A stretch of DNA of 35,110 nt from Asterionella formosa (lineage: Eukaryota): positions 1 through 35,110 of the forward strand of contig NKIB01000118.1 in assembly GCA_002256025.1 (NCBI GenBank), read 5' to 3'. A program made the position numbers and the translations under genes. The notes below the pieces were generated by a model. It had not been told where the DNA came from and ran no database searches. It saw only the letters and a program-made list of their open reading frames with translations. Positions 6,817 to 30,610 of this stretch are shown one piece after another; the stretch's first letter is position 1; each line of letters starts with the position of its first letter.

Positions 6817-7161
6817 GATATTTTGATGTGGCAGTGGGTTGCTTCCATAGATTTATTGTTGATTGTTGTTGTTCTCAATTGATGTTCATAATTGGCTGAG
6901 TCGGAACCGGTATAGCTATTAACAGTAGCTAGCATGCATGTACTGTCAACATGAATCCTACAATGGTACAAAATTGAACGCTGTTTCTACATGTTTTTGG
7001 GAGAAAAGTCTCCCCAAAAAGCTACTGCTGACAGGGCCGCAGAAAATATATGTGTTAAAAGCTAGAGGGGAATAAACATCAGCGCGGAAAAAAGGGGAGA
7101 ATTTCTGACCCAAAAATGTAGGAGGATCTCCTACATTCTCCCCATTTTTCCATGCTTCTTA

Positions 7162-8141
7162 AGGTTCCTGTATTTCAACCCTAAGGCAAAACTTAAATTA
7201 TTGCTTCGGGTTGCCAAAATTCCATGGAACTAAGAATTTATATGAGTTATTTTTGAATGACATGATTCAATTTGAAATATTTAAATCAGTGGAAATTTGC
7301 ACGTACATGCGTACATAGATTCCTTTTCGGATCCGCTAAATATACATAGACATTGTAGAATGCTAAATGTATATATACCAACGATTATGTTCCTTATATC
7401 CAACCTGGCAGCTCGGCAAATATTTGAAAGTGCACTCAACAAGTTGCACACGTATGATGTCCAATGATGATCATCTACTGGTACCTGTAGTAGATATAGT
7501 ATCGGCCTGCCGGCAGTACACCCAAGAAAATGTTACATGTGTAGTATCCAATGTGGCCAGTGTGGGTTTGCAATTCCTAGCACAATCAAACGGAGGATCA
7601 GTACATATATAATACTGTGTGCACTTACAATGGAATTTTAGGTACAGGAAATTTTATGACCAGCATCACAAGACTCTGATTCAGATGATGACGTTTTGGC
7701 GCTAAGTGGTTCTGATTCCGATTTTTGGAGACCGTAAAAAATGCGGATTTTGTCGAATTTTCGGACGATGAAAGCTCAATGTTGCTTTGCTGGGTCTAAA
7801 GGCGATTTAAATACATACTAGGTAACCTTCAAATAGCATCAGTATATAACTTCTGCCGAAAAACTGCGGAAAGGAACTTCGGTTTTTTATTATGCCAAAT
7901 AAAGTGATTTCTCCCGAAATTTCCACTCTTAATAGCATAGAAAAAACTGTAAGTTCCTTTCTGAAGTATCTCGCCAGATCATGTGTCCTGACGCATATGG
8001 AAAGGGTGCCTATTGGTGAAAGCTCCATTTGGCGATATACATTTATGTTTTTTTCTTCGTAAAAAGTGTGTGTTTGATTACTCTGACTCAATATTATTTT
8101 TTCAACCCTACCTCTAAACTAGGGTTGAATTGCAGGAACCT
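7162..8141. mobile_element. Non-autonomous TIR element, family H copy 2
   Basis: TTA|AGGTTCCTGTATTTCAACCCTA ... TAGGGTTGAATTGCAGGAACCT|TTA, a perfect 3-bp TTA duplication. Colinear with 456-1263 plus an extra segment at ~7501-7726. Confidence 0.82.
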
Positions 8142-10644
8142 TTATTAAGCCAAAGATGCCAGTCAAAATTATCCACACACAGGAAACAAAAGTAACATGC
8201 ATTAGTAATTTTCGGTACGTTTTCAACCTGTTTTCATTCTCCAAATCCAGGCATACCTTGTATTGGAGATCAATATTTTTTCCAATAAACCAAGGTACAT
8301 CTACTACAACGCCAATTATTGGTACAGCCACCAGAAAAAATGGGTGGCCCGCTATGACAAATTGGGCTAAATACATAACTTAAGGGTGGTGCATCAAATA
8401 TTAATTGTGATGCATCATATAAGATATATGATAGGAGAGGGAGTACACTTTTTTTGCCAAATATAAAGGCAAGTTTAAGAATGACTGCTACAGTACTACA
8501 GCGCTGATCACAGATTTTAGTGGTACGTAAGCTAGTACAGGGACCTTTGGGACCCAATAGTTAATAATTCCTAAAAATGACCGATTCAACATGACAATAG
8601 GCGCTATCCAAGCGTCCAACCAGGCAAAGAAAGAACAAATCATACTTGTGGGACAGAACCATACAATGGTGATGAAATCAAACAAAAAGAGAATGCAGAA
8701 AGAGGAGGAGATGAAAAAGCAAACCTAGATTAATGCAGGAGCGGTGAAAAACAGCGATTGCATGCATGTCGATTTGGCGTTTTACACTAACACTATGCAA
8801 TGTTGGGGAATTCATGGCAATGGTATCAACACAACGCAAACAGAAGAAGAACCAGACAAAGACAGCAACACGAGAAAAGAAAAGAAGAAATTTAACCCTT
8901 TTTCACTACAGTGAAAAGAAGCAAGAGGAACACAAGAATGTCGATATGCTAAACATTAACAAGAATAAAGAAGAAGACAGACATCTAAGCCGCGTATTAC
9001 GTGAAGTAACCATCACGTAAATAAGCCTAGTTGATTTTGAATGGATCACATAAATTAGTTCAATAGTACATCAAAATGCTTACTTGAATATATCTTTATA
9101 TTATCTCAATACATCACGTTAATTATTTGATCAGAGTATCATGCATGCATTCCTGATCATCACTATATTACGTGATCACCTTCACATAAACATTCGAAAT
9201 ACTTCACGTAATTATTTGAAATACTTCAATTAATTCTGTAATTTAGTTCACATTGCCTTATAATTTTGTTCACGTAATTCTATAATATAGTCCACGTAAT
9301 GTATTAAATTTTTTTACGTAATTTAAAAGTACTATCAAATATGTTGATTACTAATTCAATTACGACCGGTAATTCACATCACATGGGAAACAGATCTCGA
9401 TATGCAATCAAACAAAGCAGTTCTTTCAGAATGGCATCTCAGTTTTGAGAAGTCAGGCATTATGAGACATCTGTAAGGACAATGCAAGACAAACCGAAGC
9501 CGTTCATTCTGAATCAAAAAATTATTCACTCTTGAACAGGCATCATTATACGAAGTTGCAATATGAATGCATCGCACTGGCTTCCTTCTTGTCCTTGAAA
9601 TGACTTGCTTTGTCATTGACCTGCAACGATTTACATAGCAACAGTGTGTCAGTAATTAATTTAATAGAACTAGCAACAGCATAAAGCAACACACACATGT
9701 GCTATTCAACTGTTTCACGGAGTGCAGTCAAATTGACAGCAAGACACCGGCATTAGCCACCAGGCAGCACCGCAACTAACTGATGCAATCAAAAGAATGC
9801 TCCTGTTTTGAAATGGATGGCTAAAATGTAAAATAAATGTAGAGAACAATAGCAAAAGCTTGTGATTTATCGCTCGCTTTGCTGTTGTGATGACAAAAAC
9901 TGAGGATTAAGCTTACCTTAGTAAAATCTTCCATTGCGGGTCGCCATATTGCATCATTTCACCTTCTATCACTCCAGCTTTCAAAAGAACACTCCTTTTC
10001 TGAAAAGTCCTGTTCAAATGTCAAATGAATGTTGAGAACAGCAACATATCACTATGAATCATCTCGCTTGGTGATATGATAGCAAAAATAGCAAGAAAAA
10101 ATATTACCTTAAAAGCATCCATTGCGGAGGACAATCTCAATGTTGCATCATCCCACCTTTTGTTGGTACAACAAACCATTTGTGAGTTGATAAAAGATTT
10201 GTTTATAGCAAGGTAGCTGAAAATCTGGAAGGGGGATGCTAGTTGTAAGGGTCGTCCCCATGTTGAAAATAAATTGTTCACAGTGGTGTTGAATGTTGGT
10301 GTTTTTATGAATTAAGAGGGTCAAAATCCTGGAGTAGCCATGACTTCCTCTTGTACCAACAGAACCTACAATCTACACGAAAAAGTCTTGCTAACAATTT
10401 CGTCGGGACAAATTTCTGAGGCTACAAGTGTGACTTGAACAAATATAAGAAAAGGGAGAGGACACAGCCAATAGTTACTCCTAATTGCACATGCACTGGA
10501 TGATCTACCATCAGCCTTGTCTACTATAGTAAAAAAACGCCTGGATTTTATATTGAAAATAATCAACTGATGAGTCAACCAATTCACTTGCATGATGAAA
10601 TTTTAATCTGTTGTGTATTCCTCAATTCTGTGTGATTTGTACAT

Positions 10645-13855: not shown

Positions 13856-14424
13856 ATGAGAAACAATCGTTGGGTTCGACTGCCAAACTCCTTACCATCC
13901 CATACAGCCTTGCCTGGTGTGCAGGAAATAGTGGGTTGCCCCCACAAGCATCTTGTGCCGCCTTCCTAGGCAGTCGGAGTTTCCTACCCAAACGCTGTGG
14001 ATAAGATGATCACCTTTCGCAAAATGTGGTTGGGGACTCACCTACCCTAACAAAACTAGGGAAGCATAGGTCTTGTTGGCAGGTAGCACAATGAAAGAGT
14101 TGCCAAGAAAAAGGGGAGCATGAATGGGCTATAAAACATACTATCCTTTTATGCCATTCCAATACAAGGTTCACCTTGTATTGGCAAAAGGTTGGTATGT
14201 CAAGTCCAATGCAAGGTGAAAACAATTCCAGGTACTATCACTCGTCCAATTCAAGGTTTTCCTTTATTTGTCATGATAATATCATCCCATAAAAGGTATT
14301 CCGTATATTGGGCTCTGTTTTTTTCAAGAATACAAGGTGGCAACATTTTGCAATTAAATGTTGCCCCTATACTGTTTTGTACTGTACTATGATGTCATGT
14401 CCCAATACAAGGTGATAAGTTCCA

Positions 14425-14497
14425 GGGGAATGGCTTAATGGTTTGCACACATTCTGCAGTGGCGGGTTCGATTCCTGCATTCTCCATCTGTATTTTT
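14425..14497 (+). ncRNA. tRNA(Ala)-like Pol III cassette copy 2 with truncated anticodon arm
   Basis: GGGGAAT/ATTCTCC 7-bp acceptor stem with G3:U70 pair plus discriminator A; T-arm GCGGG-TTCGATT-CCTGC; A-box TGGCTTAATGG; T5 at 14493-14497; only 62 nt. Confidence 0.6.
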
Positions 14498-15229
14498 CAC
14501 AAAGTCCCTGCTAGGGTTCCTGGTGCCTGATCAAAAGACAGGTCTTGTTGAACTGTACAGACAAATAAAACCGGTACTAACTGTTTCCGTTTATTTGGGC
14601 CCAAGTGCGATTATTGGATAGCTTTAACAAAAAAATTAATTGACATTTTTACAAGTGATAAGTATCAATACAAGGTGACGATTATTTGCAATTCGAGGTA
14701 TCCTCTGTATTGGGTTTTGGCGGTACAATATCACATCCCAATACAAGGGCATAAGTTCGAGTACAAGGTGACAATATTTTGCAATTCAAGGTTGAACCTG
14801 TCTTGGTCTATAGTGCTGGTAAAGTCTACATAAGATATCATAGTAATGCATATCAATTAAATAAAACGTCAAATTTTTTTATTTATATGATCATTCAGTT
14901 ATATATGCTTTCAAAATTTTCTAAAAAGGTTTTGCCATCTGTCTGCAATGCAAATTGATGATATCATAGTAACCTCTCATTTATTAAGCGCTTTAAAACT
15001 GCTCTATTGCTAGTATGGAAGCTCCTGTAGCGCTTTCTGGCGCTGCCAGCCTTGGTTTTCTGTAATACTACTAACCATCCCAATACCTACTCAACAAACG
15101 TGATGATTTGGGCGCTGTAAAGTGGGGAGAATGGTGGATATGCTTATCCCTTCTTGAGAGGAAGTCAGATAAATGATCTTTCTTGCTGTCGGTGTCTGTA
15201 GTGCCATGATCAAAATCTTTCTCCCCTCG

Positions 15230-15720
15230 CCTTAATCGCCTAAATGACCTAGTAAAAAATTGGATTGCTTAGTAGTTTGAACTATTTGTGGAGGAGGAGT
15301 TGGTGCTGGCTGTGCCTGGATCGCTTGTCCCCCCTCCCCCTTGCTGAGAGGAGCTTCGTCAGAGAGTGATTGATTAAGTGAGTGACCCTGACGCAGATCT
15401 CGTCCCGATTTTTTAAAGCGCTGTGATTCTTGCGTCCTTGTCCGACTGCACTTTTCTTTTGTTCTTTTCATTTTTATGTAGAACATTGTTTCTGTCATCC
15501 CATGCTGTACTTGCTTAGACCCAGGTTTGCTCTATCGCTGCAACTGTCAGTTTGTGTGCCATAGCCCCCACTATCTTTTCTGCGAATTCCTCTAAGATTG
15601 CTAATCGATCCTCTGCTCAGTAATGAAGGTGTCCATGAGAAGGGTATGACTTGTTCCTTCTGAAACGCATCGGCTGCTATGGCCATGATGATAAATCCTT
15701 GACTCCGGGATGGCATGATT
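15230..15720 (-). mobile_element. Degenerate 3' fragment of a non-LTR retrotransposon ORF
   Basis: Manual translation ...AAIEQTWV*ASTAWDDRNNVLHKN..., the W-x6-W-x2-RN-x2-LH C-terminal motif also seen at ~25.05 kb and ~34.78 kb. Confidence 0.45.
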
Positions 15721-16375
15721 CATCAACATTGTCGAAAAGTGTTACTTCCAAGATTTGACTAGCAGCCTCAGAAAAATCGTTAAATCCTAATAGTGACTAC
15801 TACATAGTTCCGCGCCAAAATTGAGATGCTGACGCCTTCCTGTATTGTCGGTGACAATGGTCGAGGATTCCCTTTTATAACTTTTCCATGTGCTGTTTGC
15901 GGAATGAGAGTGATGAATTTTGAGCTGACCAAAGCGTCTGGTTCACTAGCTTAAGCTGGATTTGAATTTCCTTCATTATCAACCTTGTTTGAAAGAAATC
16001 AATTTTTGCACAAAAGTGTCCGAAAGTCCACAAACCATCAGTTAGGAAAGTTGGTGAATATTTGCATGCTTCGAAATTTTATTCACGTAAAAAAAGCAGG
16101 CAGTGTAATATTGAATGTCTGTATGTATGTCTGTAGTAGTAAAGTGCGAAATGACCAAATCAAGATACCAAAGAAATGTGAACCACGAAAACTAGTGTGT
16201 ACATGAAACTCAGAAAAAAGTGTATGTTTATGTTCTATCTTCTTGCATTTTGAGCTGTTGTGCCCTTTCCGAGATTTCATTTTCTCAAGTTTTCTCATCC
16301 ATTTGTACAGAGTACTATAGATAAAATTAATCATGCATTTGAAGTTATCAAGCTACTACTCACCGTGGACTCACA

Positions 16376-17881
16376 ATGTCTCGGTTTGTTTGTATCCAAA
16401 AAACTGGCCAAACGACGACCAAAACAACTTCCAGCAGCACTTTCAACTATTTGTTGTCAATGTTGGTGCAAAAAATAGTGTTCAACGATTATCTCGTCTA
16501 TGTTAGGCTACATATATGTGCGATCAGATGATAGTATTTCCTCTTCTGGGAAAAGGGTGTTGAGCCCAATAACTTTTCCATCCTGCCATTGTCACCTGCA
16601 GGCGACACTCCAGCATGCACATACCATTTTACTCTTCGCTTTGGCGACACTCCTTGGTGCTGGAAACCATACAAATCTTCTTTCATCATAGAGACAATTA
16701 CTGATTATACTTTAGCTTGTCGCAAGGCTGTCAAGAAGGTTTGGTCAACAGCCGAATTTACATTCGGAATGTGCTCTTATCATGCCTGGAATGCATGGGT
16801 AAGAAACAAGAAGAGAATGGGTGAAGAGTTCGAGGCATATAAGAGAAGTTCCTAGATATATAAAATTCCAATCCTTCGCGATTTGATGATTTTTAAGTGG
16901 ATCAACACATACAAGGAGGAGAAAGTTGCAACTGCATTGTTGCAACAATGGGGTCACACCATTCACACCAGAATTGAATTGAATAGTTCCAATCTACTTC
17001 GTGGTGGTTTGCCTGCACACAACAACAATACAGAGGGCATCAATAATGTTGAAAAATCATTCTTTGACCACAGGAAGCCCATGTTTGAGGATTGTTCCAA
17101 AGGGGCTCTATCATTTTGCTCCACTCTTCACCCATTGGTACATTCAATCAATGTCTACAAGTTGATTTATAGGCTCCTTGAGAAAAGCCAAAATGGAGAA
17201 GCTACATTTCTCACAGTGACATTTGATTTCAAGTGTGATGCAATTGGAATCGGAGAGGGTTCATTGTTGATTGCTACATTGTCTTTTGTAGACCTAAACA
17301 TTTTTCCACTATGCAAACAATGCAGTCCCAGAATACTGCAACTGCATTGTCACAGCATGGCTGGTCAGCTATCTCAATATCGAAAGAAGAGATATCATTA
17401 CATAGGGATCATGGAATCAGTTACTGCACTAACTGTTATGCAATTGATAAAGAAGAACAAAATGTATGATGAGTACAAGCGCCTTCTCCAAAATCCTGAA
17501 CAATATTCTGCTAACCACACATTTGATGATGTACTTTCCCTTACACGCAGGTTTCATATTGTTGAACCTATTGTGCCCAAGAATCAAAGCAATGATGTGG
17601 CTCTTAATAAATGTTTAGGAATTTTGGAAATGTGTGGATTGGGACCCATTTCTATTACCAGCTTGAAAGCAATGGGTAATGAAGGCCTCATATCTTGCCA
17701 TTGTCTCACATATTTAGCGAACGCGTGTTGTAAACATGCAGTTGCATTTGCATTTGAATGTGGAATTATTTCTAGTTTTCCGAAAACAATGCACCATCCA
17801 AAGCTACCTAGTATTAAGATAAAAGTTTCTGGATGAATCAAAGATGGGAAACCTGGAGGTAGCTTAGAATTTAATGGATGA
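16376..17881 (+). pseudogene. MULE/Mutator transposase C-terminal half (second D, CxxH, catalytic E, SWIM finger), frameshifted
   Basis: TITDYTLACRKAVKKVW...MCSYH (D at 16703, CxxH at 16772-16783); PAHNNNTEGINNVEK (E at 17033); SWIM SCHC..YLANACCKH (~17695-17737). Reading through TGA 17834 gives G*IKDGKPGGSLEFNG* ending at 17881. Start is approximate. Confidence 0.75.
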
Positions 17882-17925
17882 TTCTATTTATTAATAGAAC
17901 TAGCTAGTAGTGATTATAACAGTTG

Positions 17926-19740
17926 TTATTAGATAAGAATATTAATGGTTTTCCTAGCTCTAACCAGCTTTTCCAAGGCAGACCTAATGTACGAAAATAT
18001 TAATCTTTGCGCTTTGTGGGTGGTGTTCATTGCTTATCACTCCATATGCAATCGTTTTCGTTTGTTGAGCTAATTTGGTTGTAATTACTGGAAAAACGCT
18101 GTTTCCTTCTTGTGTCAGTCTGTAAGATGCATCAGCAGCAAAGAAGATTGAATTACCCCAGAATTCTGTATGTAGGCATTCAGCAACGGATTCTCTGTTG
18201 ATAGCACCGGAACCAAAGAGTCGTCTTCCGGTTGCGAGTCTATGCCAAGTAGGTACATTGAATGTACCATGAAATTTTGGATATTTTCCTTCTTGTACGA
18301 TTCAAGCACAGCAGTGATTCCTCCCCAGTTACTCCCTTGACCACTTATAAACCAAACCGATTTATTGCGCAAACGAGTGAGTCATTTCATGCATTTTTTC
18401 ATTTGAATTTCGTTTTGCCCTTGCATGTTCAATTTATCAGGGAAGTAATTAAGACAGACTGATAGTATTTGTGAATCCGTTTTCTTATGCCTTCCTTGAA
18501 AACATTATATTGGGAGTGTTTTAAATCACCAATCTCAATTGTGGTCAAATTCGTTTTGGTGTTAGATAATTCCTGAATTAAAAAGGGGCACTTACTGGAA
18601 TGACAAAATGTGCATCTTTTCTTGGTAATTCTGATTCCTAGTAGTTAGGAGCGAAAAGAGACTATCGATTCATAGGACAAGCAATTGGATAACATTTTGG
18701 ACTTGCTCCTGGTGGGCACAGATGTGGCTCGATTCAAGGAAGGAACCACGACTTAACAAAATCTAAATTCCCACTCAACCTTTTTTCATAAGGTCTAATC
18801 ATTCACAAAACTATTGGCAATGCGATTGGACATTCACACAAAGTCAAGGCCTGATACAAATATATATATATATGAGTATAGTGTTTTAGATATCATAAGG
18901 AAAAGCACCCAAAAGTTACTGCAATCCAAGTTGAAGCAAATGAGGGAGCAATAAATTCAATGGCTGTGTCAATACTCATCCAATAGATGATACAACACAT
19001 TCAAGAATCGTGATATTGTTTTCCAGTGGGTAGAAGCACAGCTCTAGATCTATATTTTCTCATGGCTGAGGGGACGGTTCTTCACTCTTACTCCGCATTT
19101 ATCATTGCATCATAAATACCATAGTATACTAGATATATAACTTTAAGCTTTAAACTGGAAATGCACACTGCTAGGAGGTAGGTCTTCAGCACTTTTGAGG
19201 GAAGCAAAGCCATGTGTTGCTTCATAAAATGAAGTGGTCGGTTTCAGCATCAATAAACATATCATTTTGGCGTCATCGGTATCATGCTGTTCCAGCAACT
19301 CTTGGATAAGTGCACTTCCAACCCCTATTGTGGGATTAGTGTCGTCATCGATATCCACGCCCCTTTGATTATTGGCGCCTGCATTCAATTATTCCGCCAA
19401 ATATGTATTGCTGTAGTTCTTCTTATCTTGTAAATCATAGTGAGTGTATACTTGAGCTTTTGATGTTTTCGTTGTTGTGTCTTGTCGTTCAGAGCTATTA
19501 CTCTTGTTTTTGCAAGCTTTGCCTCAAATGCCGCCATTCTTGGCTGGTGCAAGCGCACTTTCCACATTATCACATTTGTAGCTGTTTGCGTCAATTTTTT
19601 CTATTTTCCTTAGTTTCAATTCTATTGCCTCGCTTCCTCCTTTCATCACCTTTGCAGTAGTAGGATGTGTTGCCAATGATGTTGGTTGTTTAGTTGTATC
19701 GTCACAACCCTGCTCTGTGAAAGTTTGCTGCTTTGCCATG
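17926..19740 (-). pseudogene. MULE/Mutator transposase N-terminal half (charged N-term, Cys/His region, first catalytic D), frameshifted
   Basis: Manual translation: VLSTENPLLNAYIQNSG/fs/IFFAADASYRLTQEGNSVFPVITTKLAQQTKTIAYGVISNEHH/fs/AQRLIFSYIRSALEKLVRARKTINILI** (D at 18133-18131; TAA TAA at 17931-17926). 5' end is approximate. Confidence 0.65.
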
Positions 19741-20640
19741 TCCTTTTGCCTGATGATTCCCTAAAGGGTCCCGGAAACCTGTGTAGCTTGAATACCAGTG
19801 AATTCCTTGCTACTTTGTTTTGTACTAGACTAGTCCTTATTATTTTCGCCTTTGTACTTGGCTAATAAGTGTGACTGTGGCTATCAGGTCAGGTTTGTCA
19901 CCATCAGAAGCCTTTCTGGGGTCCAGACAATTGGAATCTGTATTTTTCTCACAAAGAGTAAAGGAATGAAAAGAAGGCTGGAATACTTGATTTAGCAGCT
20001 GGAAGGAAACATGGCTGAACCCACACAACGTAATGAGAGCAGCATCATGCTGGCTGTTTATCAGCTGAGTCCGAAACGGACTTGACAGAGGGTGTTATAC
20101 TGGTGCCTTCCACCAGATTTTGCTGCTCCTTTTCTGACCCATCAACAGTCCACCTTTCTCTAAAAATTGGCGGCATCTTACTGATGGATCACATGCTGCT
20201 ATGAATATTAGCAATGTGATGATCATGTCATCATCATCATCCTCAGGAGATGAGAAGAAATCTGACATGATCTGTAATCAATGATGATGAAATTATGCTC
20301 ATCAAAGATAATAGTATGTAGATTAAACAAGAGGAAACACAACACATGCGAGTCTAAATTTCTAAAAAAATTTAACTGGTGTATTTTCATTTCATTTCCT
20401 TTCCTTTCCATTTCAAGTCAGATTAGTACTAATCTAAAATATTTGGTGTATCTGAGCACAAAGATGAAATTATAAATACTTATAAATCAAATCACAAAGA
20501 AATTTGTCATAATATTTTTGGCACATAACGTTTTAGAACATGATCTAATTACCGATAGATACCAGTATACAATTCATGTACATACCGGTATTCGTAACGA
20601 ATTTTTAAAGGTCATACATAGGCTTCACACAACAGCGAAC

Positions 20641-21402
20641 TTAGAAAGAGGCAATCGACCTGAGTATTTTGTCAACCACGGGGGGTTCTCGAATACATGG
20701 AGGGAGGTAGATTAGACTGCTCAACGTCGGAATATCTTTCCAGGTTGGAAGGCTCAAAATCGCATTTTCTGTTCCTTGAGACATAGGACTTCGTTTGACC
20801 GCAAGATCATGCTTGTTCTCCGCCACGAGGGGCAAGTCTTTCGCAAGAGTTGTCCACCATTTTTCAGGTGGGGCCTCTTGTGCTTCATTAATACCAGAAA
20901 TGGCTCGTTGGATACCGGGAGGCAGGTGGATCCTTTGTTCCGAGACCGATGCGATCGAGGGGGCGGGCTCCACCTCCGGCTGTACATTGTCTTCGACGAT
21001 TTCGACTTCGACATCACCATAATCATTTGGAGGAATTGCTCTGGTTTGTAAATACTCAACAGGCAACAGCACTTCTACAGGTGGCTTCAACTCAGTGGCA
21101 TCCAATGAGGGGGCGCCGATTGCACGAAGAGATACATCGTCCCAAAGGGGGCAGCTATAGACAGCGTCGGGCACTGTTGGAGGTAGAATCGGTTCATTGT
21201 TCCTGCATGGGACCAAGTTCTGATTGAGAAGGTCAGGGCTAGGAGGTTGATAGTCCTCGGATATCGAAGTTATTTCTGAAGATTCCTCGCTTTCTAAATG
21301 TTTTTTCTTTCCGGCTCGAACAGAGAGCTTTCTGACGAACTTGAACGGCTGGAACCTTCGCTTACAGGTGACTTCCATCACTGAGATCGTATCTCCCGTC
21401 AT
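20641..21402 (-). CDS. Hypothetical Pro/Glu-rich protein
   Basis: 253-aa uninterrupted ORF, more GC-rich than its flanks; no recognisable domain. Confidence 0.6.
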   Translation of the reverse strand: MTGDTISVMEVTCKRRFQPFKFVRKLSVRAGKKKHLESEESSEITSISEDYQPPSPDLLNQNLVPCRNNEPILPPTVPDAVYSCPLWDDVSLRAIGAPSLDATELKPPVEVLLPVEYLQTRAIPPNDYGDVEVEIVEDNVQPEVEPAPSIASVSEQRIHLPPGIQRAISGINEAQEAPPEKWWTTLAKDLPLVAENKHDLAVKRSPMSQGTENAILSLPTWKDIPTLSSLIYLPPCIREPPVVDKILRSIASF

Positions 21403-22020
21403 GGTTTCTGGCAGTTCGGGTGGTTGAGGCTATAATATCGAACAATGTTTAAAAGTGAAACAATCAAGCGGGAAGACAATCGGAGTGTGCCGAACCTTCA
21501 GATGTCCTCCTTGGTGTTTTGAAAACGTCTCAATACTTGTTATTTATTTGAAAAGTTGAGTGCGGCATATATATTGTGGATATTCCTCTATGTGTTTATG
21601 TCAATCATTCGATATCTTTGTCAGCATATAAACATAAATATTTATCAATAATCGATCCCATGCTCTATGCAACACCAAGATACGACCAATGAAAAATGCA
21701 TGTATAGCCCTCAAAGTGGGCATAGCTCTATTCATGGCTGTGAGAAATTATGGCTAGCCGGCTCCAAGTCTCGTCCTCTATATAACATCGGTAATAGTTG
21801 ATGGCATTGCTGCTGGAAGACGTGGAAAATCTTTCAACAAATTTTATTTTACGTGGACGAAGGTAGCTACCGGTAGGTAAATCGTTAGCAGCGGCTGGTG
21901 GGTCCGGCAACATCCCAACGCCCAGCACCCTGGCAGCACAAAAATAAAAATTTTGAGGTTTGAAGCAATTGAGAAACTTCATACCGGCATGCATGTAGCT
22001 CCTTCCTGACACTGATCGAT

Positions 22021-22200
22021 TACCTGGTACCAGGTACCAGGTACCTGGTACCGGTACCTGGTATCAGGTACCTGGTATCTGGCACCTGGTATCTGGCACC
22101 TGGTATCTGGCACCCGGTACCAGGTCGAACGAGTACTGGTACCAGGTAGTGGTCCCAAGGCAGGTACGGAACAGGTACCCTGGTACCAGTACCAGGTACT
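22021..22200. repeat. (TA-CCWGG)n palindromic heptamer array
   Basis: TACCTGGTACCAGGTACCAGGTACCTGGTACCGGTACCTGGTATCAGGTACC..., with a 14-bp higher-order unit CACCTGGTATCTGG. Confidence 0.85.
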
Positions 22201-23033
22201 AACTTCTTAGCTATGTCGACCAATCGAAATTTGTGCCAACATAGCAAAATCTCCAAGTATGGTAGACTTCGAAGGAAAAATACGACCGGTAAACCATCCT
22301 GCAGATTTGCCTTGGATCGGGTCCAATCAAAATACCGGATTCATATGATTTGACGAATGGATTCGGTTACAGCACTTCGCTATTGAATACGTAAACCTCT
22401 TTGTCGAAATTTTGGAAGTCCAGACCACGATTGCCTGCATGATGACGACGACACCACCAACTTGAGAAGCCACCACAACTCATAGAATCTGGTAGTTGGT
22501 AGCATGTGGCAGGCAAAACATAGGATTTCTGTTGGGATTCCCGGAATGTATTCTGTGAACGTGCGAGGACCGCGGGGGAGAGACTCTGGTGTGGTGCCGA
22601 TGTCCATAGTTATACACATCGCTCGTGTGACGTTGTCACCCCCTTAAAATCATTGGCTCTATGGATAAGAATACTCTCTGATGGATTACGGTACCCCGGT
22701 ACCAGGTAATCTAGAAGAGATGAGCCACCAAAATTGAACATAACGAAGAAGCCGAGCGCACATCGATTCATGCGGTCCATTTTGTCCACCGGTAGGTACG
22801 AATGTATTCACCAGCAGCATTTCTCATCCACGAATGGTACTTCCAGCACGATTGCTTTAATTAAGGCAATTCTTGAATTTTTGACACCTCTGCCAACACC
22901 TCCATGAGCACGACTCCATTATACCCCCTCCCCCCCCCTCCCCTTGCAACAATTGCAACTAGTCTCATAAAATACCTCGCTTGGTAAAACATTCTGTCAT
23001 ATTCACATACCTGAACTGAACTAAAGTAGAACC

Positions 23034-23918
23034 ATGAGATCGAACAGAAGTCCAGATTCTGAAAAAGTAAACACAACGAAGAACAGTTCCAAAAACCTTG
23101 AAAATATTCACCATACTGCAGTTGCTGTGAATTTGTCCAATGATATTGACGATTCCGATGCTGGCAGTATTAAGAGTAATCCATCAGTTCTGAGGAGCAA
23201 CACGCGCAATGGCAGCAGGGTCATCAATTTAGCTTTTGCACCAATAGTTGCTGGTACTGCTTATGGCATCTACGCATTTTTAGGTAACAAGGGCATTGCT
23301 CCGAAAAGCCCCAATACCTTTCGGAATCCAAGCGATCAGGGTTTACGGGAAATTTTGATATCAGAACTGGCATTGCACAATACCGCAAGCAATTGTTGGC
23401 TAGCAATATATGGCAATGTATATGACCTGTCGAAGTATTCAAAACAGCATCCAGGAGGATCCTCTGCCATCACAAGTTTGGCTGGGATGGAAGCTACTCA
23501 GCAATATAGTGCTCACCACAATGAAAGATTATTGCAAACAATTTCAAGTACATTGATTGGAAAACTTGTTGATACTCTTTCCTCTTCAACAGCCACACCT
23601 TCTTCTGTCACTGCAAAGAATCAGGTTACAGTTGAGGAGTTGGTATTGCACAATACAGCCAGCAACTGCTGGATTGCAATCTATGGCAATGTTTATGACT
23701 TGACGAAGTATTCAAATCAACATCCAGGAGGATCCTCTGTCATTACAATTTTGGCTGGGATGGAAGCTACTCAGCAATTTAGCGTTCAGCACAATGAGAA
23801 GTTACTGCAAACAATTCAAGGCACTTTGATTGGGCAACTTGTTACATCCTCCTCGTCAAATGCACCAACAACAGCAACAAGCTCATCTTCACAAAGCAAC
23901 ACTAATGGGGAAGACTAG
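23034..23918 (+). CDS. Membrane-anchored protein with two tandem cytochrome b5-like heme-binding domains
   Basis: Two copies of EL.LHNTASNCW.AIYGNVYDL.KYS.QHPGG.S.IT.LAGMEATQQ...H; one TM segment (LAFAPIVAGTAYGIYAFL) upstream. Confidence 0.9.
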   Translation: MRSNRSPDSEKVNTTKNSSKNLENIHHTAVAVNLSNDIDDSDAGSIKSNPSVLRSNTRNGSRVINLAFAPIVAGTAYGIYAFLGNKGIAPKSPNTFRNPSDQGLREILISELALHNTASNCWLAIYGNVYDLSKYSKQHPGGSSAITSLAGMEATQQYSAHHNERLLQTISSTLIGKLVDTLSSSTATPSSVTAKNQVTVEELVLHNTASNCWIAIYGNVYDLTKYSNQHPGGSSVITILAGMEATQQFSVQHNEKLLQTIQGTLIGQLVTSSSSNAPTTATSSSSQSNTNGED

Positions 23919-24548
23919 AAACATGGTGTTAAATTTGGGTTCTCTACATTGTATAGAGAAGCAGATATGATGCAAGGTATATACAGTATGTGCTATACAA
24001 AGGTATGAAATGATACATTTTAACCAAGAAGTTGTTGTAGGTGATGACTGCACATGCAGGGTCCCTGACAAAATGGTTTTAGTTCCACCTTACACAATCA
24101 ATACCACTTCAAAACTGTAAGCCTCCATCTTCTGACTGTAAATTTTTAAGTAATACAATAATGAAAACTTGATGCAGGTACTAAGGGAATGTTAGACTAT
24201 GGGCCGAATTCAACAAATAAGTAATCAACCATCAAGATTTGCTTAATTTTTCCAATTAAGATTGTTGCATAGCAGTGGCTTACTTACAGTGCATATTGAT
24301 TAACATGTACATGTGTTGTATACCTTTCCTCCCAAACCGTGATCATGTTTACTCCATTTACACTACAAAAATTCTTTTCCTAATAATTTACAATTTATTT
24401 GTTTGATCAATACACTATTAGCTAGTGATATTTGTTAGGGTACCAGGTACCAGTACTTGCTGGTACGAGTACAGAAGTTTTGGTAAATAAGAAATTTAGC
24501 TGTGTTTTCCTTACAGTAAAACCCATATTTTTACCACAACTCCCAGTA

Positions 24549-27500
24549 CCTGCAAGTTGTGGTAATTTTACTGAAATTGATAATGTGACGCAGGACAGGC
24601 GCTCAAAAGACTATGTTTTGTTTCACAATTAAATTTTAAAGTATGTTTAAACTAACTAAAAATTGCACTTGTGCTGAGACAACATTGCAGTGAAATTAGG
24701 ACTGTCGCTTGCGCACCCTTGGACGTTGCCCATGACCACATTGCCATACTGGAGCGAGGCAAAGCCGACCTTTATCTGTGATGTTCTGATTTTCTGCCTG
24801 AGTCTGCTGCCATGTATGAGCGCATGATCAACTGTATGCACCCATTGTCGTTTTTGTCATAAAGTATGTCGATTAATTCGCTTGCACTGCAACAGGAAGA
24901 AGAAATACAGATTTATCCTTCTCTAAGACTCTGTTTTGATCGTTGTTGTATCTGTTCTGTATCTGGCCATCCACTTCTGTTTTCATCTTGATAAGTTGTT
25001 CCTCCAGCCCTTTGTCTGTCCATATAATTCCGTTTTCTTATGATCCAACTATTCACTCCCATTCGCCATAAAACCATGATAACATGTTCACTGCACTGTT
25101 CTGCCTGAATTCAATGTGCTAATCCCTTTCTTTGTTATATGTAATGGTAGTCAGCTTCCATTTAAAATTGAGTCTTCCGCTAAAAGCTTGGTCCCACCCA
25201 AAATCCATCTGATTCATATATGCTTCAAAAGTTAAATACCCCACCATGTTTGAACTTTGCGGAATGATACTACCCTCCCAACGCACATGTTCATTGGCAA
25301 GCCATTGTTCTAGTCCCTGTTTGAGGTTTTGACGAACATAAGGGCAAGAACCCGATCCCTTTATTATTGAATTCATGTTTTGCTTCCATAATTTAGTCCT
25401 TGATGAATTTGCAGATGGGCACCAAATCACAAGATTGATGTCTTTGTTTGTGTTTTCGTTCCTCGGTCGTAAAGTTTCCAACCATGGCTGTGTGGCACTT
25501 GAAATTTTATTGACGAGGGAGCCATCAGAGGCTAGCACTAGTTTTCCGTTGCATAACTTTGGGCCAAATTCTTCCACATTGTTGGGAAATTTATAATCAC
25601 TCATAGCCGAATCTAAAAAACTAATCTAATGAAGACGAGTATGCGTCAATGTGGTGGTCTTCATGAACTAGACTTGAGACCGTGTAACTAGCTTGTGCTC
25701 ATCGTGAAGATGATCTTGGCGGAAACCCGCCGGTGATTGCAAAGTCCTCTCCCATTTTGATTTTTATAGTGACCGGAAGTAAAATGGCCGAAAAGCAGAA
25801 TTTTATAGTTTATTCCCTAGAAAAGATTCGGAGGAATACCCTGGATGGTGATAAACCAGGAAGATTCCTTTTTCTGTTTGTTGAACAAGATTCATGGTCG
25901 CCATATCCATTTGAGAAAACCCTTTTCTGATGACAACTGGCCAAGTCTGTCCATGGTTCTAGTTGCTGGGTTCGCAAGCGGCGATAGATCAGAGACATAC
26001 AGAAACATCTGGTTATTGTTTTTTAAGACGCCATGCTCTTGTGGAAGGCTGTGATTGATGTGGCCATGTGAAAATACTCCTGCAATCATGGCATTTCTGT
26101 CCCTGGAGGTAATTAGATAAACTAGTATGAAGGTGCCAACCCATCTCTAACGTCTTCTAACGTAATTACCTGTAAATATAATCGACATGCTTTTAATCTC
26201 TTCAATTACTTTGGTTTCAAGTGAAACTGTGGAAGTGGAAACACCTCCATCAGAAATTATTATTCATTTTTTGTAATCGAAGTTGCCAAGAAGTTTCTAT
26301 GCGTTCTTTTCCCTGGATTTGATTGATTGATAAACTTCCAGGCTGAGGTAATTTAAATTGTCTCAATATATCGTAAAGTCCCACAATGCCCATTTGAAGT
26401 TGTACATGTTCGATGATGATATTTAAGAACTGTGCGATTTCATCGTGTTGACATAGGTGGCCCAAGATCAATTGTATTTGTGCTATTCCTTGATCTGTTC
26501 ATGTATCAGTGAAAATGAAGGCTCCAGCAAGATTTGGAGGTGCAAAGGAAATATGGCATTTTTCTATTTTATTGAATCCTATCCTTGTGAAAGGCGCCCA
26601 AAAAGAATAAATAGAGAACGTCATCAACTCTATCTTTGAATCAATAGTATCACGACTTGTTAGTGAAGTAAATAATTATTTCATCTAAACGCGGAAATGT
26701 CAAAACCAGGGAACTGGCTGAAAAAGAAAATGACAATGACCGGGGCAATAGAGGGGCGGCCCGAAGCAAAAGAAAGCAAGTCTTGCTTACTTTGCTTTAT
26801 TCGCTCCAAACTAAAAATTGTTCTCTTTTTCCGGCCAAAGTGGCTGATGAAAACATCCAATCATTGAACGGTTCTATATTTATTAGAATTTGAACATTCA
26901 AATGCTAGCGTTATCACATGTAACAGCTAGTGGTACCAGGTACCCGATATGGTAACAATTATACCAAACCACCATATGCATGCTGGCTGGGCTCGTCAAT
27001 GCTGCTCAGGCTACTTGAGGTAGCACTCATGAGTGCTTGTATATAATTATTTAGCTTAGATTATTCGATTCTTTAGTAGTACATATATGTATTATTGCCG
27101 CAAAAAGGATGCATTGTGAAATGGGAAGAATGGAAGCGTGATGGTGATGGATTTCAAAATTGTTGTTTGCTAACCAGTATAAGTATTGGTATCCTGTGTA
27201 TTTTCTTCATTATATGCATGTAGTTGACAGTCAATATACCTGGTAGCCTAGTAACAGCCATGAGTATGTCATGTACATACATAGTTTATAATAACTATAC
27301 TTTATGGATGAATAAAACCAGAACTAGTTGTGTCCATTTATTTGGGCACAAGTGCAATTATTGGATAGCTTTAACATGCTATAAAATTTAATTGACATTA
27401 TATAATAGTTATATTGGGTCATTGGTATGATGATGCTAGCAGTTATGAGTTTCTAGTACCAACAACTTTGAAACCATTAATGAAGATACATTGTTTTCCT

Positions 27501-27776
27501 CACTTTGGCTGGAAAAAGAGAATGATTTTGAATTTTGAGAGAATAAAGCAAAGTAACCAAGACTTACATACTTTTTGCTTCTGGCTGCCCCTCTATTGCT
27601 CTGGTCATTGATGTGTATTGATGTTTCCCTGGTTTGAAGAATAAATTAGCACAAAACCTCACAAAGTGGCGATCATAACAGAGACGATTTTTAAGAGTGA
27701 ATTGATGACGCTTTTTATATAGAAATGCAGTCCTGCGTCACGTTCTCAATTTTAGAAAAATGACGCAACTTGCTGG
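24549..27776. mobile_element. Foldback-type TIR element (long family-K relative, TA-flanked), left arm split by a LINE insertion
   Basis: TA|CCTGCAAGTTGTGGTAATTTTACTGAAATTGATAATGTGACGCAGGAC pairs with GTCCTGCGTCACGTTCTCAATTTTAGAAAAATGACGCAACTTGCTGG|TA. The arm resumes at ~26607-26920 and is the reverse complement of ~27425-27720 (e.g. GCAATAGAGGGGC / GCCCCTCTATTGC; TTACTTTGCTTTATTC / GAATAAAGCAAAGTAA). Confidence 0.78.
24611..26591 (-). mobile_element. 5'-truncated, internally deleted non-LTR retrotransposon (diatom Ambal-like)
   Basis: TSD AGGCGCTCAAAAGA (24597-24610) / AGGCGCCCAAAAAGA (26592-26606). Motifs in order: GHLCQH...EHVQLQMG, LKACRLYLQVITLEDV, WPHQSQPSTRAW, RNase H start LASDGS, QMDFGWDQAFSGRL..KW, LWRMGVNSWIIR. 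Confidence 0.75.
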
Positions 27777-28325
27777 TACATGGCAGTGCAGTTGGTAGGT
27801 ACCAGGTACTGTTTTCAGGTTCCCTACTGGTATATCGCAAGGGATTGTGATACATAATAAACAGGTACCTGGTACCAGTCTATCAAAGTCCAAGGACCTT
27901 ACCGGTTGTACCAGTACCAGGTACCTTGTACCTGGCACCATATATCATACAAAGACCGGAAACATACGGTACCTGGTACGAGGTACCTGGTACCTCTAGT
28001 CTACCAGTACGTATGCAGCCTGATGATGAGGACGGTGAGTTGTGCGTTTCCTTTTTTGTGTTTGGCTCTGAGGATGAATCAGAATTGCATTCGCATGCAG
28101 ACATTACACCAATGACTCTGAGCGATGCTACCTACCTGGTACCTGGTACCAGGTGGTACTCATGTTTGATCGTACCTGATAGGTTCCTGCTACCTGTAGA
28201 CGAAGGAAGGAGCCAAAGAACCGAGTGGTAGTACCAGGTACCTGGTACCTGGTCCCAGGTAATGGGAGCCCGTAGAAAAAAAGTAATTTGCTTGTTATAC
28301 TACTAACAACATACCGGTACATACC
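27777..28325. repeat. Dispersed (TA-CCWGG)n arrays upstream of the sigma factor gene
   Basis: Clusters at ~27795-27810, 27863-27940, 27968-28010, 28130-28160, 28228-28260. Confidence 0.8.
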
Positions 28326-30049: not shown

Positions 30050-30610
30050 ATTCCGGTACTGGTACCTGGTACCATAACTGAGGAGTTCCAGGTACCCTGG
30101 TACCTGGTACTGGTAGGCTGTACACCTGAACCAGCGAGGACCAGGTACCCCTGGTATCAGGTACCAGTACCTGGTACCTGGTACCAAGTACCGGTACGAT
30201 ACCACTGGTGCTATGGTACCCGCTAGGGTATCTGGTACCAGCCAGGTACAAGCAAGTTGCGATAATTTTGCTGAACTAAAGATTTAGCTTCATCCCAGAT
30301 CAAATAGTCTACCGGTAGCAATTTATTAAGCAAAATGACCAAATCTTGCAGGTACCACGTCTTTTACCGATACCTGGTACCAGGGAACCAGTATCGGTAA
30401 GTAGTCAACAACCTCATACCAGGTGGTACTAGTACCAGGGGTACGAGGGTATGGTACCACCTCGTAACTGGTGTACCTAGGGGTATACCAGGTATCCTCT
30501 GCTCTGCTGATGGCTGTGAACTAATACCGAATGTGTGCACACTCGTCCATAAAGCAACACCGACGTACTCCGTACCTGAGGATTTTCAACCATCGTACCA
30601 GGTACCTGAG
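30050..30610. repeat. (TA-CCWGG)n arrays upstream of the ankyrin gene
   Basis: Dense GGTACC/CCWGG units at 30053-30250 and 30350-30500, plus hairpin TTACCGATAC...GTATCGGTAA (30364-30400). Confidence 0.85.
30249..30352. mobile_element. MITE family K copy C
   Basis: TA|CAAGCAAGTTGCGATAATTTTGCTGAACTAAAGATTTAGC...AGCAAAATGACCAAATCTTGCAGG|TA. Confidence 0.78.

Follow-up and report, generated by a model that had tools for sequence, protein, structure and literature searches.

A putative Mutator-like transposase divided between two convergent gene relics in Asterionella formosa

Results

Layout of the locus

The contig NKIB01000118.1 of the Asterionella formosa assembly GCA_002256025.1 (35,110 nt, forward strand; the whole stretch analysed is called the window here) carries the relics of two convergent genes, which between them hold the Asp, Asp and Glu (DDE) residues of a putative Mutator-like element (MULE) transposase. 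The window belongs to the nuclear genome of a photosynthetic eukaryote. Its coding content includes a PPR protein, a sigma-70-like factor, ankyrin repeats, an FGGY kinase and tandem cytochrome b5 domains, and its DNA recurs in metagenome runs labelled freshwater, lake, river and 'algae'. The two genes lie tail to tail. The back-half (C-half) gene occupies 16528-17881 on the plus strand and was delimited by its phmmer relatives, its profile match and its motifs. The front-half (N-half) gene, which is truncated at its 5' end, occupies 18644-17926 on the minus strand and was delimited by tblastn with the proteins P0152-P0173 and by profile matches in three frames. As read from the sequence, an AT-rich spacer of 44 nt (17882-17925) separates the facing stops. 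Both halves stand far above chance, with E 1.7e-102 for the back-half profile on the plus strand and E down to 1e-33 for tblastn of front-half proteins on the minus strand.

The motifs of one half are not repeated in the other. When 151 proteins (P0001, which is the back half of the window itself, and the listed back-half relatives) were compared with the window by tblastn, all matches fell on the plus strand at 16500-17900, save that of P0037, which runs to 17929. The front-half proteins match only the minus strand at 17932-18644, apart from one weak stray at 1413-1700 (E 0.004). The initial annotation of this locus, which placed the first-Asp block on the minus strand ahead of a double TAA at 17931-17926, assigned only the second Asp, CSYH, NNNTE, the SWIM finger and the tail up to 17881 to the plus strand, set the stops about 45 bp apart and saw no motif duplicated between the halves, is in these respects borne out by the reading and by tblastn. 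It extended the front half too far, to 19740: the family match ends at 18644, and neither tblastn nor profile searches found a front-half family match in 18645-19740.

The back-half relic

Over 16535-17881 the back-half relic reads WCWKP, ETITD, CSYH, NNNTE, CHCLTYLANACCKH, IKDGKPGGSLEFNG and a stop, in this order. Its probable start is the ATG at 16528, from which the sequence reads MIVFPLLGKGC before a stop, like the beginning of the paralogue fragment P0112. After a frameshift follows a motif that is conserved in the family ahead of the second Asp (GVEPNNFSILPLS..GDTPWCWKP, 16556-16669). The approximately 100 extra codons before the second Asp, which had been taken to favour a natural split, consist in part of this family motif and make a weak argument. 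ETITD lies at 16694-16705, with the second Asp codon at 16703-16705, and is followed by CSYH at 16772-16783 and by NNNTE at 17021-17035, with the Glu codon at 17033-17035. The SWIM pattern CxCx8CxH (CHCLTYLANACCKH) is found at 17696-17737, and the tail IKDGKPGGSLEFNG leads to the natural stop TGA at 17879-17881.

The gene is interrupted by a frameshift in the interval 16528-16556 and by two premature stops, TAG at 16853-16855 and TGA at 17834-17836. Two small deletions add to these, about 33-34 nt being gone at 16803 and at 17079 in comparison with related copies; extra letters at 16802/16804 and 17079/17080 occur in related contigs, and P0002 has 11 additional residues. Ahead of WCWKP, an 11-nt direct repeat (GGCGACACTCC), its copies 42 nt apart within 16601-16653, adds 14 codons (..GDTPACTYHFTLRFGDTP..). 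Because the paralogue fragment P0112 has a similar insert, these codons are a subfamily trait and not damage private to this copy.

The front-half relic

The front half is recognisable from 18644 downward only, which corresponds to about residues 92-337 of approximately 343. It opens with a CCHH zinc-finger block at 18644-18441 (GIRITKKRCTFCHSSKCPFLIQEL..IEIGDLKHSQYN), continues through a pre-catalytic region at 18399-18163 (..SNWGGITAVLESYKKENIQNF..LSTENPLLNAY..) and reaches the first-Asp block at 18166-18020 (FWGNSIFFAADASYRLTQEGNSVFPVITTKLAQQTKTIAYGVISNEHH), whose Asp codon is 18133-18131. After one frameshift the relic reads KAQRLIFSYIRSALEKLVRARKTINILI, containing the helix ..LEKLV.., and ends with TAATAA at 17931-17926. 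The distance from the first Asp to this stop is 65 residues, as in the front-half family. Its lesions comprise at least three frame changes, internal stops and the loss of the first ~90 codons.

The copy is a dead and truncated relic. No terminal inverted repeats (TIRs) beyond chance were found in 15800-21200, where the best pair (23 nt, 83%) has E 0.08, and no target-site duplication (TSD) of 8-11 bp was seen around the relic, in agreement with the earlier description of a decayed copy lacking TIRs. Since the copy is truncated at about 18644, one end of the element has probably been lost, and the absence of TIRs is uninformative with regard to intact copies. No Rfam family was found in 15500-20500.

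The junction and the copy number

Contigs of four public runs were compared with 15500-20500. An independent DNA run from another study yields a 307-nt contig over 17755-18061 that crosses the junction of the two genes with 0 differences; the junction is therefore not an assembly error of the window. Most contigs are 90-95% alike to the window (67 of 100 in run X2 and 70 of 107 in run X5). The summed depth in X2 is about 31 at 15500-15833, 290 at 16168-16334 and 177 at 18506-18672, and about 24 beyond 18672. The peak bins, with depths of 100-335, lie between 16168 and 17336 and at 18506-18672, while some bins of the element have depths of 16-29. These depth peaks, together with the many contigs of 90-95% likeness, suggest a repeated element of about 2.5 kb at this place. 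The DNA upstream of the back-half gene (16168-16527) is multi-copy by its depth in X2 and is probably the 5' flank or the left part of the element, although no terminal repeat was recognised in it; contigs related to the element omit 16299-16483/6. The stretch 18673-19841 appears to be single-copy.

Two relatives carry a related junction or spacer. A variant copy fuses 17815 to 18148 on the same strand and corresponds to the library protein P0002 (96% identical, ending in ..PSIYL). The diverged paralogue P0037 has TGG in place of the two TGA codons of the window and reads through the homologous spacer (..FYFVIRLVVIYNSCH vs FYLLIELASSDYNSCY) as far as the stop of the front half. The tail-to-tail junction thus predates this copy, and documentation of the convergent layout is confined to this copy and its close relatives. 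The small hairpin that had been noted in the spacer is at chance level: its minimum free energy is -11.9 kcal/mol (z = -0.17), and 88 of 200 shuffled sequences fold equally well or better.

Protein families of the two halves

An exhaustive phmmer search with the back half, its TAG read as X, returned 163 relatives at E<=1e-3, of which the best 150 were listed; 85 of the 163 pass E<=1e-10 and 19 pass E<=1e-30. Full-length back halves measure 430-580 aa, and 13 of them were aligned with P0001 at 26-51% identity. These homologues start with Met or Leu and continue with a non-conserved stretch rich in Asp, Glu and Ser (D/E/S); in their open reading frames (ORFs), 15-155 stop-free codons precede the conserved motif, and the D/E/S share is 0.19-0.45. 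Next come the motif A-R-E-D..LP..G..WxWxP, M-x-D, G-x-C-x-x-H-A, N-N-x-x-E and a helical region, and the C-terminal part is built of a nearly invariant CxCx8CxH, YP..M.P and a tail G-R-x-K-x-A..G-x-A-L. Residues D132, C155, H158, N249, N250 and E253 (P0003 numbering) are invariant, and the SWIM residues C466, C468, C477 and H479 nearly so. A first-Asp block is absent from the 13 aligned homologues, and none precedes the second Asp in 15 pattern matches. One relative, P0128 (685 aa), is chimeric: its first ~200 residues form a back-half start with the motif, second Asp and CxxH, after which it continues as a proline-rich, leucine-rich-repeat-like protein, so that it represents either two merged gene models or a fragment that was captured.

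When the 105-aa ORF of the first-Asp block was used in a word-index search, three intact front-half proteins (343-377 aa) were recovered, with 77-81% identity across the matched block; a profile search gave 22 at E<=1e-3. The alignment of 18 front halves spans 19-51% identity to its first row. These proteins consist of an acidic N-terminus, a CCHH finger (C102, C110, H134 and H137 in P0153) and the catalytic stretch with Asp D278 and Glu E313; in a 15-row alignment D278, C102, C110 and H137 are invariant, and E313 and H134 nearly so. Fourteen of the 18 share a common aligned end, 8-12 residues past the helix ..VE.IV..R, as would be expected if homologues of the front half stop just after the helix that reads LEKLV in the window. 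The remaining four are either cut short (two) or diverge as if frameshifted (two). From the first Asp to the C-terminus there are 65-68 residues in 13 of the 16 front halves with the Asp motif, and 94 in P0170, which has an insert. The 65 residues counted in the window match the aligned end of the family, and the double TAA is therefore the family's natural stop.

Identity within the stand-alone ORF families of both halves is 24-55%. To judge by these alignments, the halves belong to separate conserved families, and the stops in the window are the natural stops of those families. Scans of viral-contig and genome-contig collections for loci of the relatives, made with a 4-row alignment, gave no match.

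A fused relative

A single protein, P0100 (859 aa), unites both halves. By hhalign, the front-half profile matches its residues 124-423, to the last columns of the profile (E 6e-34), and the back-half profile matches residues 422-859 from the R-E-D motif on (E 2.6e-47), so that one ORF holds the first-Asp motif, the second Asp, CxxH, Glu and SWIM. P0100 is ~25% identical to the split forms. Because both matches abut at residue ~423, the two families are complementary, non-overlapping parts of one enzyme, which contradicts a derivation of the halves from two unrelated elements.

Hidden Markov models (HMMs) built without P0100 were compared with 174 proteins: the front profile matches 23, the back profile 150, and P0100 alone is matched by both. 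Sixty-four of the back-half matches reach the conserved start, and more than 200 extra N-terminal residues are present in P0100, P0120 and P0137. No front half was found in P0120 and P0137 (hhalign probability <1%), which leaves P0100 as the one fused form among the 64. The initial annotation had held that this copy would be reduced to an internal inversion if both halves occurred co-oriented in a single ORF of a homologue. Such a homologue exists in P0100, but it is one of the 64 relatives that reach the conserved start and is only ~25% identical to the split forms, and the near relatives are split. P0100 demonstrates the complementarity of the halves and does not demonstrate an inversion in this copy.

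Superfamily signature

The back halves carry the arrangement D132-x22-C155-x2-H158 followed by E253, and the front halves carry D278; the whole signature is present in the window. The D, D, CxxH and E signature of the Mutator/MULE-IS256 type is thus found, spread over two gene products. With the exception of P0100 among the 174 proteins compared, the family does not combine the three catalytic residues on one polypeptide, as the single-chain definition of a DDE transposase has it.

Profile searches for MULE and SWIM, which had been proposed as a check, recognised nothing in the window itself (0 Pfam families at E<=1 in its MULE-relic ORFs) and gave sub-threshold matches, which point to Mutator, in some relatives. 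At E<=0.1, Pfam MULE (PF10551) is found in 7 of 18 front halves (best 4.9e-5) and 2 of 14 back halves (best 0.028), and in none of 10 relatives scanned. In P0153 the match covers residues 277-327 and profile positions 4-54 of 99, that is, the first half of the domain only. ZSWIM1-3_RNaseH-like matches 2 of 18 front halves, and AFT one of 18 (E 0.055). Pfam SWIM is found in 4 of 14 back halves (best E 6.9e-4), the matches of P0004 (15.4 bits) and P0120 (14.2 bits) lying below the cut-off of 19.6. In a language-model atlas, neighbours of the front half carry MULE, FLYWCH, ZSWIM and DBD_Tnp_Mut, and those of the back half carry SWIM; these serve as leads only.

Structure models

AlphaFold models of both halves were built with the family alignments. 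The front-half model (mean predicted local distance difference test score, pLDDT, 72.8) has a beta-rich finger domain followed by helices, then strands at 274-277 (with D278 at the end), 283-285, 288-296 and 302-310 and a helix at 315-339, after which the protein ends. The back-half model (mean pLDDT 74.7) is disordered over 1-107 and continues with a strand at 126-131 (then D132), a helix at 135-144, a strand at 149-154 (C155), a helix at 156-166 and further helices, including that of E253. In these models the front half would provide strands 1-3 and helix 1 of an RNase H-like domain, and the back half strands 4-5 and the helices.

A complex of P0153 (residues 150-343) and P0003 (residues 95-522) modelled with ESMFold2 scored 0.74, 0.75 and 0.74 in three runs, against 0.00 for the best of three controls; the mark applied in this comparison is reached by 51 of 78 solved complexes and by 2 of 108 mismatched pairs. 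Between runs, at least 67% of contacts agree, and the pLDDT of the partner is at least 48; the predicted interface joins 271-279 (D278) with 125-132 (D132), 155, 249 and 251-256 (E253). The proposal that the active site assembles from two proteins finds support in this result, at the level of models only.

A profile search of the PDB found no solved relative by sequence, and Foldseek found no PDB match at E<=1e-3 for either half. The top VIA matches of the finger model are domains of the WRKY-GCM1 type, namely AFT2 (Z 6.6, root-mean-square deviation (rmsd) 2.9, 75 aligned), WRKY33 (5.8) and WRKY1 (5.4), all below Z 8.

Neighbouring features and repeats

The DNA adjoining the relic at 18645-19740 lies outside the transposase and appears single-copy, with a depth of ~24 in X2. 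Within it, 18874-19553 is covered by RNA contigs with 0-1 differences from two RNA libraries of different studies (18874-19060, 19154-19553 and 19237-19489), and a loose contig end at 19553 may be a splice site. A GNAT acetyltransferase considered at 19143-19388 (minus strand, 81-codon ORF) was rejected: its Pfam match, the sole one in this stretch, has E 0.27 only and is gone on reading through stops.

Further along, 20176-20500 is multi-copy (summed X2 depths of 447 and 258, the adjoining DNA having ~24). It has loose contig ends at 20209 and 20250 and is overlapped by a small palindromic repeat rich in ATGATGA at 20217-20304. About 2 kb upstream of the relic, 14150-14815 contains direct repeats of 56-57 nt (65-75% alike) together with short inverted repeats on CCAATACAAGGTGA; this cluster is possibly a satellite or a non-autonomous element of small size. 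Direct copies of a ~800-nt sequence, 76-81% identical (E down to 4e-101), occupy 453-1268 and 7159-8146, and shorter dispersed repeats link 1493-1758, 22019-22102, 24539-24674, 26734-27940 and 30140-30358. The tandem cytochrome b5 domains are encoded by a single ORF at 23025-23915, in which two domains have arisen via a 203-nt tandem duplication (23368-23570 and 23641-23843; 85% identical).

Discussion

A transposase probably divided between two genes

We interpret the locus, with a probability of roughly 0.6, as a dead, 5'-truncated copy of a Mutator-like (IS256/MULE-type) element from a family whose DDE transposase is naturally split into two genes. The family is filed as Mutator-like by its signature, since the order D, D-x22-CxxH, E fits; the resemblance of its modelled fold to that of the IS256-family enzyme ISCth4 is weak. 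That the split is natural and old, and not the outcome of a chance inversion, is well supported by sequence comparison, because the relatives of each half stand alone, the position of the front-half stop is conserved and each half has an N-terminus of its own. The preference of the initial annotation for a natural split over a chance inversion is upheld by the stand-alone families, the conserved stop and the single fused form among 64 relatives.

The product of the front-half gene would comprise an acidic tail, a WRKY/GCM1-like CCHH finger, a helical region, three strands with the first Asp and one helix, followed by the stop. The product of the back-half gene would consist of a disordered N-terminus, the A-R-E-D..LP..WxWxP motif, the second-Asp strand, CxxH, NNxxE, helices, the SWIM finger and a basic tail. 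A heteromeric mechanism is suggested by the structure models: the two proteins might associate so that strands of both form one sheet, uniting D, D and E. The front-half protein would presumably supply sequence-specific DNA binding, and both genes might be transcribed inward from the two ends of the element. The split itself may have originated by fission, probably through an internal inversion, of a fused ancestor resembling P0100.

Several observations weigh against this interpretation. Neither TIRs nor a target-site duplication, which would tie both genes to a single element, were found at this copy. Where Pfam cut-offs are printed, which is for the window ORFs, the 10 relatives and P0153 but not in the member tallies, none is reached, the MULE match of P0153 scoring 14.2 against 27.6 bits. 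The starts of the proteins come from automatic gene calls, and a leading Met is weak evidence. No fused front-half forms were found among proteins of 918-2620 aa, a weak negative, as lengths of 661-917 aa lay outside the search. The single related locus obtained from a metagenome scan, L001 (1555 nt), has an intact front-half ORF with the stop context ..GTT TAG, and no back-half tail was found in the 164 nt downstream (1392-1555) or the 215 nt upstream; with no back half in these stretches, either the spacer varies, or the tail-to-tail layout with 44 nt is not universal, or L001 stands alone. In favour of the interpretation, the sample in which the window DNA is best represented has a polyA RNA library with contigs that are ~90% like both halves, but these come from paralogues and give neither strand nor ends nor proof of transcription; a lack of RNA cover in other parts of the stretch is uninformative. 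The complex was modelled without alignments, and the partner's own fold is uncertain in it (pLDDT 49-54); its passing speaks for complementarity and not for association in the cell, as halves of one domain are expected to dock anyway. The resemblance of the back half to ISCth4 is weak both by Foldseek (E 0.99, probability 0.75, 106 columns, rmsd 4.2) and by VIA (Z 5.5, rmsd 6.1, 157 aligned, rank 13), whose lists consist mostly of helical bundles.

Some of these points lend themselves to a different explanation, in which the split genes are real and do not make a working two-protein transposase. One or both proteins could be regulators, domesticated host genes or passengers, with fused enzymes of the P0100 kind performing any mobilisation. 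Truncated transposase products act as repressors in other transposons, a fused relative does exist, the front half of L001 has no back half within reach, and TIRs and TSDs were not seen. Nevertheless, the catalytic residues and CxxH are invariant down to 24-26% identity even though the fold of each protein is incomplete. The family is also multi-copy, with many contigs of 90-95% likeness and decayed copies, in the manner of mobile elements; the halves dock in the model with the catalytic residues among the interface; and P0100, at ~25% identity, is too distant to be an obvious helper. We regard this explanation as unlikely, though it is the strongest competitor of a transposase made of two proteins.

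It is considerably less probable that the halves are exons of one gene, intact copies being co-oriented and spliced, the stand-alone ORFs being artefacts of gene calling and the window bearing a private inversion. The relatives do stem from genes called automatically on short contigs (1-6 kb) from metagenomes, in which a leading Met is trivial, and one fused homologue is known. Reading through into introns, however, would give scattered ends, while 14 of 18 front-half stops fall at one aligned position, after 8-12 weakly conserved residues. The stop contexts ..ATC TAA TAA in the window and ..GTT TAG in L001 are not splice donors, and the back-half ORFs open 15-155 codons ahead of the motif with a D/E/S-rich sequence. 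The junction spacer is common to the diverged paralogue P0037, and cis-splicing is impossible between convergent genes. A one-off internal inversion in a single-ORF family, or unrelated fragments lying tail to tail, is highly improbable: breaks after the helix and after the stop would yield the same picture in a copy as decayed as this, but the nearest relatives of each half themselves stand alone, the front half ends at the natural stop of its family and not at a chance stop, the fused form is one of 64 informative back-half relatives, and the halves are complementary parts of one enzyme and not of two elements.

Extending the natural split to a widespread clade of eukaryotic Mutator-like elements, with a heteromeric transposase whose one DDE domain spans two chains and whose convergent genes are driven from the ends of the element, is a proposition that we consider evenly balanced. 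DDE transposases, integrases and RAG1 are textbook cases of catalytic domains contained in a single chain. If the split holds, a natural family divides this fold between the first and the second Asp, with both parts maintained by selection, and an active site can assemble in trans. Activity could then require co-expression from both ends, which would amount to a built-in check against truncated copies. Such a family would bear on the regulation of transposases, on the origin of two-gene elements (by fission through internal inversion, with promoters at both ends) and on the design of split, inducible transposases. It also has consequences for annotation, as each half alone escapes Pfam and would be recorded as a 'hypothetical protein' or as an unrelated zinc-finger protein.

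Comparison with known systems

With the single-ORF transposases of the MULE/IS256 type the split family shares the order D...D-x20-22-CxxH...E and a helical insertion that follows the second Asp. A putative DNA-binding domain at the N-terminus and a SWIM-like finger at the C-terminus, as in many MULEs, are further likenesses. ISCth4, a one-ORF enzyme of the IS256 family and kin to eukaryotic MULEs, has D175, D241 and E348 with C262xxH265, and a C/DxxH motif ~20 residues past the second Asp is described as a signature of the superfamily (PMC7780238). Some classes of MULEs bind DNA through an N-terminal zinc finger of the WRKY-GCM1 type (Babu et al. 2006, PMC1702500). In contrast to the single-ORF enzymes, the chain is cut here between the helix after strand 3 and the second-Asp strand, and the parts are encoded by separate genes, convergent in this copy. 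The fused relative P0100 differs from the split forms in being one ORF and in lacking the acidic N-terminal stretch of the back-half proteins.

Among diatom elements, the 'MULE-Diatoms' group has one ORF, a SWIM domain and TIRs of 123-124 bp (Dupeyron et al. 2019, PMC6446971). The available part of the same source reports extra ORFs in MuDR, Mutyl, Hiun and Spectre and describes none of them as part of a catalytic domain (PMC6446971). A MULE inserted in UMPS of Phaeodactylum tricornutum is mobile, 3707 bp long, with TIRs of ~200 bp, 9-bp TSDs and two ORFs, one of them with MULE and SWIM domains and the other coding for a diatom-specific zinc-finger protein, called E3-ligase-like (10.1101/2023.01.02.522487). 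In size and gene count, as given in that account, it suits the needs of a full copy of the split family. A MULE domain is recognised there by InterPro, whereas Pfam recognises none in the ORFs of the window. This element may represent the same split architecture read differently.

In MuDR of maize, mudrA and mudrB are convergent and are driven from the two TIRs, the layout that is proposed here for the split family. MuDR is an element of the Mutator superfamily with two ORFs, mudrA and mudrB (PMC6446971). There, mudrA alone encodes the whole DDE domain and mudrB lies outside the catalytic fold, whereas here the catalytic fold itself appears to be divided. The literature searched, from which subscription journals are largely missing, yielded no account of a DDE triad divided over two genes. 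Two element-encoded proteins are needed in PIF/Harbinger (a transposase and a Myb-like DNA-binding protein) and in Tn7 (TnsA and TnsB). Both resemble the split family in that a second chain takes over DNA binding or a share of the chemistry; in them each catalytic domain is whole within a single chain, while the family described here would build one RNase H-like domain, with its D, D, E triad, across two.

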